Below are positions 5,478-53,400 of a stretch of DNA of 64,000 nt, one piece after another. This DNA is from a virus (Duplodnaviria > Caudoviricetes). The notes below the pieces were generated by a model that saw only the letters and a list, made by a program, of their open reading frames with translations, was not told the origin of the DNA and ran no database searches. Within the stretch, counting starts at the first letter, position 1. Each line of letters begins with the position of its first letter. The DNA lies in the IMG/VR virus record IMGVR_UViG_3300023275_000004, positions 61,619 through 125,618 of that record. The stretch is one strand, 5' to 3'. The translations under genes were made by a program, and so were the position numbers.

Positions 5478-5714
5478 TAAAAGAGAGATAAACCACCAAC
5501 CTAACATCTCTCTCAATGTCTGCTCCGCGCTAGATATCAGCTTAGCAGACGTTCCCTCATATTACTACTCTCCTAAGTTTTTCTTAGGCATCTGCGTCAA
5601 GTATAACGCGGTTTGAGCGGGACCGCAAACCCGACCTGAGCTTCACCCTAGGCAAGTGCTTGACAAATTTCCAGGTCTCTTCGCCAAGACAGTAACTTTT
5701 TCACCTTCGTTACG

Positions 5715-5792
5715 TGGACTATACGGGACTCGAACCCGTGAACCTCCTGCAAAATCAGGTGTTGTTCGCCGACCTTCTCAACTTTATTGCCC
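5715..5792 (-). ncRNA. tRNA-Ala-like RNA with shortened anticodon arm
   Basis: G3.U70 and A73, canonical T arm, 14-nt D loop, arm CCTG-ATTTTG-CAGG. Confidence 0.65.
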
Positions 5793-5793
5793 G

Positions 5794-5874
5794 TGGAGCT
5801 GTAGGGAGTCGAACCCTAGTCCTTCACCGTTCCGACGTGCGGCTTTCTAGTGAAGTCGAATACCGTCCAGCCCC
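5794..5874 (-). ncRNA. minimal tmRNA: tRNA-like domain only, no mRNA-like domain
   Basis: 5' GGGGCTG-GACGGTATTCGAC and 3' GGAC-TAGGGTTCGACTCCCTA-CAGCTCCA joined by a short CTTCAC/GTGAAG hairpin. Confidence 0.8.
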
Positions 5875-6085
5875 TCAGCTACAGCAGGAACCTTATTCCC
5901 TACGGTACTGTAGCACTACCGATCCACCCGATGCTAGCTGCCCTGCCCTTAGGCTCTGGTGGATAGGGCACTAAAACCTAGATAGTCTCGGAAGACATCT
6001 AGGAACTAGTGTGAATGAGAAAACAGGCCCTACCTGCATTTAATCCTAAGTTTTGGAGGCTTAGACTTCCTCGCTCACAAGAACT

Positions 6086-11917: not shown

Positions 11918-11949
11918 TCTACCCTCCTCGGGTTTATTTAAAGATTAAG

Positions 11950-12064
11950 TGCCTCGGCTAAGGAGTTGAACCCTGCAAACCGCTATCACAAGTTTCTAGA
12001 ATCTTGTGCTTAAGCACCGGCCGGATACTTAAGACTAGCTGCTCTTCCATTGAGCTATCGAGGC
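11950..12064 (-). ncRNA. tRNA-like RNA with two hairpins replacing the anticodon loop
   Basis: acceptor GCCTCG/CGAGGC-A, D arm GCTC-AATGGAA-GAGC, T loop GGTTCAACTCC, insert hairpins CTTAAG../..CTTAAG and CACAAG../..CTTGTG. Confidence 0.7.
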
Positions 12065-12154
12065 GTGCGAGGTAAATTTTCTCCGTGAACAGTAAGGAAC
12101 TCTGCCTTAGCCACCCACAGTGCGTGGTCTACCTCGGGTATTTCTATTAAATCG

Positions 12155-12355
12155 TCACTTCATTGTAGCAAGACGAGCCAGGCCAATCAAGATCACAATC
12201 AAGCCCAAGATTAGAATTGGGTTGATCCTGAAGCCTTTACGAGCAGGCTTTGCCACCTTTGGCTTTTCCCACCTACGCCTAGTTGCGATCAGTGGTGAAG
12301 GTGGACGCCTGCCGTTAGGTGGCGGAACGTACCTACCGTCTTTCATAATTGGCAT
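12155..12355 (-). CDS. small membrane protein
   Basis: basic N-terminus, C-terminal TM, RBS GGAGG. Confidence 0.7.
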   Translation of the reverse strand: MPIMKDGRYVPPPNGRRPPSPLIATRRRWEKPKVAKPARKGFRINPILILGLIVILIGLARLATMK

Positions 12356-23270: not shown

Positions 23271-23403
23271 TGCTACCTCCTGTAGGAATTTGCTCGTGGC
23301 TGGTCTGACTAGTCCTTGGGCTTATCCTGATCAGGGAGACCTGTTACCTCACCAGACAGTATTTTGGCATTAGCAGTCACTTCTACTGTTATAACAGACA
23401 GCG

Positions 23404-23475
23404 TCCCCCGAGAGAATTACGATATCTCGACCCGCCGATTAAAAGTCGGCTGCTCTTCCTCTGAGCTACCGGGGG
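23404..23475 (-). tRNA. tRNA-Lys (TTT), atypical T arm
   Basis: GCCGA-CTTTTAA-TCGGC; T arm GAGAT-ATCGTAA-TTCTC. Confidence 0.85.
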
Positions 23476-23537
23476 CTAAAAAGTGAGTACGCCCAACATC
23501 TTGCATGGCCTAGGCTCGGGCACTGTACTCACTTTAG

Positions 23538-23608
23538 TACGACGACAGGACTCGAACCTGCAACACCGGCTTATATGCCAGGGCTTTACCCACTTAAGCT
23601 ACGCCGCT
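23538..23608 (-). ncRNA. tRNA-like RNA with 6-nt anticodon loop (ATATAA), possibly Ile-related
   Basis: normal D and T arms, CTGGC-ATATAA-GCCGG, 6-bp acceptor. Confidence 0.6.
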
Positions 23609-23731
23609 AACAGGGTGCCAGCCCTGCTTTTTACATTTCGAGAGACCCGGACGGTTATCCACACTTTATGCTGGCACACAAGCTGATCTTGCTCGAACGT
23701 CTAGTAGTTAAATTTACTGTTATTTGTTAAG

Positions 23732-23803
23732 TACGCCGAGAGAATTACGATATCTCGCCCCCCTGATTAAGAGTCAGGTGCTCTTCCTCTGAGCTACCGG
23801 CGC
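23732..23803 (-). tRNA. tRNA-Lys (CTT), atypical T arm
   Basis: CCTGA-CTCTTAA-TCAGG; same T arm as Lys-TTT. Confidence 0.85.
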
Positions 23804-23851
23804 TTGATGAGAGTTCCAGATACAAAGTCAGTCACTCACAACCACCCAGCG

Positions 23852-23923
23852 TACGGGTAGAGAATTTTGAAATCCCGCCCTGCTGTGTGTAAGACAGCCG
23901 CTCTTCCTCTGAGCTATACCCGC
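23852..23923 (-). tRNA. tRNA-Val (TAC), atypical T arm
   Basis: GCTGT-CTTACAC-ACAGC; T arm GGGAT-TTCAAAA-TTCTC. Confidence 0.85.
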
Positions 23924-50467: not shown

Positions 50468-53400
50468 TCAGAGATCGCCTAGAACTGCGAGCTTAGTTAC
50501 CTGACGAGAAAGCGAGTCACTTGCACGCTCAGGTACCGGGTTATTCACATTCAAGTTCTCTACTGTGATTCCACGGTTCTGATTTATTACTGACTGAGCT
50601 GCCTGCGACAACTGCCTACTTGTAGCTCCTGGCATAGCAGCAGCACTCAACATTCCACCAGTAGCCATAGCTGGGAATCCAAACTGAGGCATTCCTGCAC
50701 CATCTCCTACTAGACCACCATTCTTATAGGCCCAGTGATCGTGCGCATTTCCACCTGCAAAGTTGTGCTGATTCCATACAGCTCCATGGTAGTGGTGAGG
50801 CTTACCATTCCAAAGGTTAAGATCCTGGTAAGGAGTGATAAGTTCCTTAGTGTTCTTACCATAATTATCATGAATCCACTGCGCTACGTCTCTACGTGGA
50901 GGAAGGTCGACAGCTCTTCCTAGAGCGTGATAAGACCTATTTCCAGAAAGGGTAACAGCATTCTTACGGAATCCTGAAATAATGCTAAGTCCAGGGAAAG
51001 CCTTGTGCAATACCGAAGCCTGCCACTGCCAACCTCCCCCGCCAGATCCATTACCTAGCGGACCAGCAGCGCCTCCACCATAAACCCAATTCTCGTCTCG
51101 CTTAGTCTTATTTACATCAACCACAATAGGAACAGTTACAGATCCACCATTGGCAAACATAGGCTGCACTTTGCCGCCACGGTTAAATCCACCTGTAGAA
51201 TCTGGGAGTGCTTCCTGGATAGCCTGCTTGTCTAGCTTCCTCGAACGAAGAGCTTCCATAATTGGCATTCCGTAGTGCTCTACCACATCTGTTGGCTGTA
51301 CGAACTCACCATTAGAAAGCCATGCACGAATAGAGTCAGAATTTCTTGTACCTTCTCCGTATACTGGTCCACCAGTTGCATACCCGTGAGCAGCAGCTCG
51401 GTTGGCATCAGAAATTCTTACCTTTTCAGCCTGCTTCCACTCCTTCTCAGCCGCCTCTGGTGAGAGACCACGACGAAGCGCGTCCTGCATGTACTGCAAT
51501 CTACGCAGGTCGTTATAAACATTCTGGAAGCCTTTTTCGTCCGTCTTAATCTTAGTCTGAAGATCCTTAGGAACTTCTCCATACTTCCTGATCAGCTTTT
51601 CAGTCTGATCCTTATTAAGACCTAGATTACGAGCCTCTTCCTTAAGCTTATCAATTCTTTCCTTGTGCCTCTTGGTTGCTTCATCCATTGGCACCTTAGA
51701 AGCAATGTCCTGTAGGAATAGGTCACGAGCAGCTGTAGCGGCAGCCTCAAGCGCATCACGATTGTTAAGACCCTGACGAGTATGATCCTTAAGACTCTTT
51801 CCATTCGACTTTACAGAATCATCAAGGTCAAGAAGTTTTCTATTAAAGTTTTCGGTAGCCTCATTAGCATCAATCATCTGACCTGTCTCAGATTGAATGA
51901 TTGTGTTAAGGGCCTCGCTTCTATCCTTAGCTGTAGAAGTTGAACTGGCTAGCGTGTCTAGAGCATCTGACAAAGCACGAATCTGAACATCATAATCTCC
52001 AGACAGCGCGATACTCTCTGCCTGCTGCTGACTTAGACCATAAAGCCTGTCACTATAAGTTCTTGATAGCCTAGCTGAATCAGATAGAATGTTATTACTT
52101 GCGTTCTGAGCAGCAGCAACATCATTAACCTGATTCTTATACTTTTCAGCAGCCTTGATCTGATCATCAAGGGCTGTGATTCCATCCTGGAATGCTCCAG
52201 TAGTATCACCCTGCGACTGAGCATAAGCTACCTGAACGTCTCTAGCTGCCTTAAGCTGAGCAATCTGAGTGTCAATTTGATTATTTACTCTACCCAAATC
52301 TTGCTGCTGGTTGTTAAGCGCTCCAGAGAGATCTCTAAGGCTCAAACCATAAAGGCGGGCCTGATCAGTAATATCCTTAAATTTTTCGTTGGTCTGCTGA
52401 AGATTATCTACTCCGGAAGTATCTCCCTTTGAAAGATCGCCATAAGCATTCTTTAGCGCAAGGAAAGCATCCTTGGTCTGGTTTGCCTCTTCTTTCTGAT
52501 TAGCTAGCTTACTAGCAACTACACCAATAAGAGCTGTAGCCGCAATAAGTGCAATTCCCCAAGGTCCACCAAGGAACGCTGTAAGTCCGCCTAGTCCAGA
52601 AACAGCTTGCCCTCCAGCAGACTTCAACCCTGCAACCGTACGAGAGAAAATTCCTACTTTACCACTAGCGTTTCTAGAAGCTTCAGCTACCTTATCTGTA
52701 GCCTTTGCCTGCTCAACAAGAACATCTGATCCAATAGGACCAATGCTTGAAGTGCTAACAACTGGAACAGTAGCGTTCTTATCTCCAGTTGATCTCTGGA
52801 TTCCAACCATTCCACGAGCAGCGTCACCAAGGGCACCAGTCAGGTTTCCACGGTTAGCAACGAACCAACGGAAAGCATCAACAATCTTGAACAGACCACT
52901 GAACCTAGCCACGATCGATACAGCAGCTACAGCAGCAAGTGAAGTAGCAATCGCGCCAAGGATCTGACTTACTCCAGGAAGAGAAGCAATTTCAGCAAGA
53001 ATAGATACGAATCCTGCTAGAACGCCAACGAAGGTGCTAAGAGCGTGCCCACCTCCGCTATCTAGGAATGAAGCAATAGCATCAAGAATCTCAGCCAAAG
53101 CAGTAGCTAGCGCCTGGTCAATTCCAGACTCACCTAGCTCATTAAGAATTCTTCCAAGGGCAGGAAGAATCTGAGTCCTAAGAGTCTGCAATAGATCAAT
53201 AGCGCGCTCAATATTGCTGGTATCACTAGCTGACTTAGCAAAGGCCCTGCCCACATCACCAAATAGAATAGCAATTTCGTGAAGTAGTGGCTTAACGTTC
53301 TGAAGGTACGTCTGTAGAGGAGACGTTGCCGACTCCTGTGCCTTAGCTACTTCTCGCCAATTCCTAGTGATGTCCTGTAGGCGTCCATTAATCCAATCAG

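Follow-up and report, generated by a model that had tools for sequence, protein, structure and literature searches.

What is a tRNA gene for when two hairpins occupy the place of its anticodon loop? Most phage tRNA genes are now taken to supplement codon usage or to replace tRNAs that host defences have destroyed. We analysed a stretch of 64,000 nt of phage DNA (hereafter the window), the right half of a virus record of 125.6 kb that is 98% complete, where one element of 115 nt raises this question. The original prediction had offered two readings for it: a scaffold of tRNA shape on which a stable RNA cargo is displayed, or a small intervening sequence. Our analysis of the sequence appears to fit the first reading, in that body and insert are both conserved and covary, and the apices of the insert are conserved in the way that D and T loops are. 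Our preferred explanation, held with moderate confidence, is that the element encodes a stable, unspliced tRNA mimic that does not decode, whose body would serve processing and stability and whose forked domain would display two recognition loops.

Setting and structure of the element

The window carries 31 tRNA genes, every one on the minus strand, and the whole phage genome has 37 tRNAs, with all amino acids represented except cysteine. In the relative L046, a tRNA-Cys(GCA), the sole type absent from the window phage, lies about 560 nt upstream of the copy of the element. The large genes of the phage (family A DNA polymerase, DnaB-like helicase, UvsX-like recombinase and ribonucleotide reductase) form a set typical of a tailed phage of a bacterium. 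The host is bacterial, because the phage tRNA-Tyr carries a long variable arm, as bacterial tRNA-Tyr does. An intron-like tRNA-Gly in the related contig L043 prompted us to consider an archaeal virus, which we rejected given this tRNA-Tyr arm and the replication genes of phage or bacterial type. Blastn with words of 11 found no match to the region among 50,697 deposited phage genomes, and searches of Pfam and PHROGs with the flanking proteins of 151, 66 and 106 aa returned no family.

Other RNAs encoded nearby have peculiarities of their own. At window positions 5700-5900 (minus strand) there are two adjoining tRNA-like RNAs, one of which ARAGORN reads as a tRNA(CUA); it matches the tmRNA model end to end with 54.8 bits, in 84 nt only, and its odd loop includes CUAGAAA, as does hairpin 2 of the element. 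Two tRNA-Lys and one tRNA-Val (23403-23475, 23731-23803 and 23851-23923, minus strand) have unusual T arms without the GTTCRA motif, and the anticodon loop of the tRNA at 23537-23608 (minus strand) was unreadable to ARAGORN, which gave a 2-nt anticodon. Finally, serial T-arm-like hairpins directly follow a tRNA-Ile(GAT) at about 53,020-53,330 of the whole genome, G000 (window -8600 to -8290, minus strand).

The element folds into a tRNA body bearing a forked domain (Table 1). On the minus strand, its sequence and its MFE structure confirm the extent, D arm and T loop that had been predicted. The stem of GCTA and TAGC that opens into two hairpins is also part of the MFE structure, and the homologues in L045, L046 and L043 fold alike. 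The acceptor and T stems stack over 12 bp, as 6 + 6 bp with one bulged A in the window and as the canonical 7 + 5 bp in L046, and this stack, with the D and T arms, is what one expects of a canonical tRNA. The centre of the molecule is another matter: a 5-bp anticodon stem with a 7-nt loop, U33 and purine 37 is absent, and a 4-bp stem opens instead into a three-way junction, or fork, with linkers of 2, 0 and 1 nt. The insert has 47-49 nt and takes the place of positions 31-39. The acceptor had been called Thr-like, a resemblance that is not conserved, since the C-G of the window at pair 2-71 is replaced by G-C in L046.

Table 1. Parts of the forked tRNA-like RNA and of the sequence upstream of it, in window coordinates
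Feature	Positions	Strand	Basis and remarks
Whole tRNA-like RNA, 115 nt	11950..12064	-	G1 = 12064, discriminator A = 11950; C at 11949; CCA not encoded
Acceptor stem, 5' strand, 6 bp; A7 (12058) unpaired	12059..12064	-	MFE; L046 differs on both sides at pairs 2-71 and 6-67
D arm: 4-bp stem (GCUC/GAGC), 7-nt loop with GG	12041..12055	-	Invariant in 4/4 sequences
Basal stem, 5' strand GCUA, at anticodon-stem positions 27-30	12036..12039	-	Covaries: GCUA/UAGC to GCCA/UGGC to UCCC/GGGA
Conserved linker: G + pyrimidine (U in the window)	12035-12034	-	Directly after the 5' strand of the basal stem
Hairpin 1: 10-bp stem, apical loop CGGCC (12019-12023)	12009..12033	-	8/10 pairs change on both sides
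Hairpin 2: 6-bp stem, 10-nt loop (11993-12002) with 8-nt palindrome UUCUAGAA	11987..12008	-	MFE and alignment
Conserved A as linker (11986), then UAGC, the 3' strand of the basal stem	11982..11986	-	Alignment
T arm: 6-bp stem with one bulged A, loop UUCAACU	11957..11976	-	MFE; the T stem of L046 is the canonical 5 bp
Acceptor stem, 3' strand	11951..11956	-	MFE and alignment
Structured leader, ~75 nt	12065..12140	-	RNAalifold (window, L045, L046, L049): 9-bp closing stem, compensatory changes
Sigma-70-like promoter candidate: TTGATT, 17-nt spacer, TG, TACAAT	12162..12190	-	Consensus scan only

ARAGORN in its normal mode misses the element in the window. The window copy did not match the tRNA model of Rfam (RF00005, threshold 29 bits) at the gathering score or at E values up to 10, and none of the Rfam families, intron families included, reached its threshold on it.

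Conservation and covariation in other phages

Relatives of the downstream 151-aa protein were found in other assemblies, and the element occupies the same position relative to this gene in L045 (protein 75% identical) and in L046 (54% identical, on a contig of 127 kb). A covariance model built from the copies of the window and L045 (R1) recovers the copy of L046 with 70 bits. The same model recovers, with 46.9 bits, a full-length element of 111 nt in L043/L044, phage contigs of 61-69% GC that were reached via another neighbouring protein. The forked layout recurs in a third phage lineage, in L167, a complete phage of 54.7 kb and 63% GC. Each of the copies in the window, L045, L046, L043 and L167 folds alone into the forked architecture. 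A model built from four sequences (R2) was too general to be of use, as ordinary tRNAs score near 40 bits with it.

Other searches covered larger collections. A pattern made from the loop motif matched 38 stretches of metagenome contigs, of which only L059 (the window sequence) and L088 (the L045 sequence) are real; in 185,579 species genomes it gave 55 chance matches, among which R1 finds no family member. Pattern searches of IMG/VR with the exact 30-nt 5' half and with the loop motif had no matches, and blastn and nhmmer searches with the element against the first 44 loci returned the element itself only. When relatives of the L167 copy were sought via its D-arm sequence, only ordinary tRNAs appeared. 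There was also no clear donor of the body among the phage's own 37 tRNAs.

The structure is beyond chance because the homologues share it and covary, and not on account of single-sequence energy: the MFE of the window copy is unexceptional (z = -1.6), and 15 of 200 shuffles fold equally well. When the copies of the window, L045, L046 and L043 are aligned, 97.9% of the pair cells are paired and 22 of the 36 pairs have changed on both sides, counts that come from only four distinct sequences, two of them 92% alike, in an alignment fitted to the structure of the model. None of 500 shuffles reached the pairing of the alignment, and slid controls were 34-42% paired. Covariation among homologues, which the original prediction had suggested as a check, is seen as compensatory changes in the acceptor, the basal stem and both hairpins. 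Moreover, the stems contain several G-U pairs on the tRNA-sense strand, which would be A-C mismatches on the opposite strand. Since these pairs fit the sense strand only, the constraint acts on RNA.

The element is as conserved as the bona fide tRNAs beside it, and more so than the flanking genes. It is 92% identical between the window and L045 and 69% between the window and L046, compared with 95% and 67% for the neighbouring tRNA-Thr and with 75% and 61% for the flanking gene of the 151-aa protein. A lack of conservation of the insert in relatives had been named as grounds for abandoning the prediction; the insert is kept in both L045 and L046. Within it, conservation of the two apical loops matches that of the D and T loops. 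Across the window, L045 and L046, no base differs in the 12 nt at the apex of hairpin 1 (with CCGGCC) or in the UUCUAGA of the second loop, while compensatory changes separate the window from L046 in the basal stem and in both hairpin stems.

Both apical motifs, CCGGCC and UUCUAGA, are palindromic. The tips of hairpin 1 in L043 and L167 are palindromic as well. The second loop of L167 holds another 8-nt palindrome, UUGAUCAA, whose form UU-NNNN-AA parallels that of hairpin 2, and the second loop of L043 is the 4-nt GGCA. Duplex energies computed for the two loop palindromes (-8.6 and -11.3 kcal/mol) only suggest self-pairing or a dimeric partner, and palindromic hairpin tips can also come from inverted-repeat mutation, without function. 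We rejected a reading of the palindromes as restriction sites or other signals in DNA. The 8-nt CCGGCCGG occurs once in the genome, at the element, and CTAG, CCGG and TCTAGA are neither avoided nor in excess; with these words at their expected frequencies, a restriction story at the DNA level is unsupported. We also rejected hairpin 2 as an amber-suppressor anticodon arm with UUCUAGA as its loop: hairpin 2 sits atop the basal stem, which would make the arm some two times longer than a normal one, and the corresponding loop of L043 is GGCA.

Intervening sequences and the missing anticodon arm

The two hairpins might instead be an intervening sequence that a nuclease and a ligase of the host or the phage excise and re-join, leaving a working tRNA. 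We consider this unlikely, in spite of several observations in its favour. Short 'enigmatic introns' have been reported for phage tRNA genes (Devoto et al. 2019, PMC6784885). The tRNA model of Rfam gives the L046 orthologue 54.3 bits by skipping a stretch of 49 nt at the site of the anticodon loop. There are also other long tRNA-like genes in phages. We scanned IMG/VR with a narrow pattern, in which 55-85 nt separate a D arm from a T loop, and it matched more than 119 stretches of phage DNA (loci L091-L170). Among the matches listed, 54 of 83 have 6-7 acceptor pairs and so are tRNA bodies that carry 30-60 additional nt in the region of the insert, and such long bodies are missed by standard tRNA finders in bacterial mode. 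At L043 3404-3498 and in L108, L122, L146 and L153, the flanks rebuild a canonical anticodon stem with U33 and an anticodon, and the insert lies at or next to 37/38. By their sequences, these genes look like true split genes, as in Lak phages.

The inserts of these long genes are of several kinds. The one at L043 3404-3498 belongs to a tRNA-Gly(GCC)-like gene; its 20 nt lie exactly at 37/38 and pair with the anticodon. Among the matches listed, one type has an ACAGCAA motif after a hairpin (L096, L097, L103, L117, L123, L130, L155, L161 and L168), and another has inserts resembling a nested T arm plus D arm (L092, L125, L129, L148, L151, L152, L154 and L162). A tRNA-like RNA of 152 nt with several hairpins (L043/L044 4884-5035) adjoins the forked element there, and in the tRNA body at L041 1605-1709 the anticodon arm is a rod of about 19 bp.

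The forked family is a different case from the long tRNAs that look split. An exhaustive search of single excisions, asking for a 5-bp stem with at most one mismatch, a 7-nt loop, U33, purine 37 and a variable region of at most 24 nt, found no canonical arm common to the window, L045, L046 and L043. The flanks left by any single excision in this family give a C at position 33 or a loop of 3 nt, and if the covarying basal stem is taken as the anticodon stem, position 33 is C every time. The original prediction had pointed to an excision of the 41 nt between two CTT repeats; the arithmetic is right, but this excision would leave a loop of 9 nt with C33, and the repeats are absent from L046. In its intron mode, ARAGORN proposes a different amino acid for each of four homologues (Leu, Ile, Arg and Ala). 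The base that it reads as the middle of the window anticodon belongs to a compensatory stem pair (A-U to U-A), and the supposed anticodons of the window and L045 differ at one half of a compensatory stem pair. Hence, the element has no recoverable anticodon arm, and its best conserved part, the loops, would lie within the supposed intron.

The three-way junction, with its linkers of 2 and 1 nt, is no bulge-helix-bulge, as there are no two 3-nt bulges flanking a 4-bp helix. As had been predicted, a group I intron, whose catalytic core takes about 200 nt or more, would not nearly fit into the insert. The 98%-complete phage genome has no match to RtcB, to an Rnl2-type RNA ligase, to a tRNA-splicing endonuclease (tRNA_int_endo) or to a CCA-adding enzyme, though RtcB could come from the host. 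The bacterial host indicated by the tRNA-Tyr arm also counts against splicing. A small intervening sequence, with neither repeats in L046 nor an excised arm common to the homologues, is thus unsupported. Still, a splicing route of another kind may exist in such phages, since other long tRNAs look split.

Transcript context and possible roles

What we infer from here on concerns transcription, the processing of the RNA by RNase P and RNase Z, its accumulation, size and stability, and any partner that it may have. The element is closely preceded by a structured and conserved leader, whose 3' end sits 3-8 nt ahead of the tRNA-like RNA in the window, L045 (leader at 2172-2246), L046 (2768-2853) and L049 (2680-2761). 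The two probably share one transcript. A promoter candidate adjoins the leader upstream, one of a total of candidates that does not exceed the expectation from shuffles. Downstream, the ribosome-binding site of the next gene lies about 25 nt past the element, and we found no terminator in between. This context fits a single transcript cut by tRNA-end enzymes into the leader, the tRNA-like RNA and an mRNA, and the leader could be a small RNA freed through RNase P cleavage.

According to our preferred explanation, a non-decoding tRNA mimic, the element would be transcribed together with the leader and the downstream gene of the 151-aa protein, and the transcript would fold into a tRNA-shaped body. 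Because the acceptor/T stack keeps the standard 12 bp, RNase P of the host could release the 5' end, and RNase Z or exonucleases the 3' end, to free a stable RNA of about 115 nt. This RNA would stay unspliced and read no codons. Its tRNA body would supply processing and stability, and the forked domain would be the working part, with the apical loops as recognition surfaces. Since both loops are palindromic, their partner might be a dimeric protein or, by loop-loop kissing, a second copy of the RNA. Plausibly, the RNA would serve as a decoy or sponge and titrate some host factor whose targets are tRNA bodies.

The body might also act only in cis, as a processing handle by which RNase P and RNase Z are brought to the transcript and cut it between leader and mRNA, the released piece having no role. 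The arrangement just described suits this possibility: the leader with its covarying closing stem stands just ahead of the element in several phages, the next gene follows without an intervening terminator, and tRNA genes and small genes interleave throughout the region. In L049, the leader is retained and a tRNA-like RNA of another type occupies the position of the forked element (2755-2838, 84 nt); its acceptor has G3-U70 and A73, and its T arm is good, but a D stem is not clearly present. Because L049 keeps the leader with a different tRNA-like RNA, the forked domain seems dispensable in that context. Yet, the acceptor/T stack alone would suffice as a handle, and a roleless piece leaves unexplained both the identity of 12 and 7 apical nucleotides over diverged stems and the recurrence of a forked domain with palindromic loops in unrelated phages. 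We thus regard this possibility, too, as doubtful.

A dead tRNA gene with a palindromic insert, or a protein site in DNA, kept by chance, would agree with the near-perfect DNA palindromes of both hairpins, with the defects of the copies (in the window, the T stem is weakened and pair 7-66 is an A-C mismatch; in L045, pair 1-72 is a G-A mismatch) and with the score of the window copy below the tRNA threshold of Rfam, but it is very improbable and largely refuted by the compensatory changes throughout the structure and by a conservation equal to that of working tRNAs and above that of the flanking genes, to which one may add the G-U pairs that suit the sense strand only, the presence of the insert just once in the genome and the ordinary frequency of CTAG and CCGG.

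Relation to known tRNA-like RNAs

RNAs with a tRNA shape and no decoding anticodon arm exist elsewhere. The tRNA-like domain of tmRNA and mascRNA are of this kind and are recognised by tRNA-end enzymes; the body of mascRNA recruits RNase P and RNase Z for the cutting of the MALAT1 transcript. The mascRNA model gives the T arm and acceptor of L046 22.8 bits, a weak likeness below the threshold of 42.5. The tmRNA domain has G3-U70 and no D stem, whereas the element has C-G at 3-70 and a 4-bp D stem, and it does not qualify as such a domain. YrlA, a bacterial Y RNA whose tRNA-like module is bound by Ro/Rsr, likewise mimics the D and T arms of tRNA. It ends in a stem that stands for the anticodon stem, unlike the element, which ends in an acceptor stem. 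The YrlA model did not match the window and gave L046 16.6 bits against a threshold of 69, and the phage genome had no match to a TROVE/Ro gene.

The closest cases in print are the RNAs C and D of T4 and the 'enigmatic introns' of Lak megaphages. T4 RNA C and RNA D (species 1 and 2; rnaC and rnaD) are stable RNAs of 139 and 119 nt, made with the tRNAs from the tRNA cluster of the phage, and their role is still unknown (PMC3014915, PMC9697503). Like them, the element lies among phage tRNA genes, in its case 31 on the same strand, and has tRNA-like ends. The fold of T4 RNA C has a canonical T arm beside paired ends, with long hairpins replacing the other arms; unlike the element, it lacks both a D arm and a fork with palindromic loops. 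Model R1 had no match in the tRNA region of T4 and detects no homology to rnaC or rnaD. The Lak introns are short conserved inserts in tRNA genes, below the size of group I introns, and their route of removal is unknown (Devoto et al. 2019, PMC6784885). The element shares with them a short conserved insert in a tRNA body and a phage of a bacterium. The differences are that the tRNA type and anticodon of the Lak genes can be called once the insert is removed, whereas no arm can be rebuilt here, and that the Lak inserts interrupt the loop, whereas this one replaces positions 31-39.

If one goes further, forked tRNA mimics without an anticodon might be a distinct class of phage non-coding RNA, matured by host enzymes, whose palindromic loops pair with themselves or bind a dimer and which act as decoys or sponges of host factors attacking or processing tRNA bodies, for example defence nucleases directed at tRNAs. 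This is a speculation to which we give a low probability. Should the forks prove to be removed, a protein-driven route of tRNA splicing in bacteria would be equally new.

Overall, our results indicate that selection retains a tRNA body in which the decoding arm has been swapped for a forked display domain, and that this element recurs across phages of very different base composition. They also reveal that tRNA bodies with 30-60 extra nt are common among phage contigs. Some of these long tRNAs look spliced and others unspliceable, and separating the two would turn tRNA mimicry or tRNA splicing in bacteria and their phages into a testable question.
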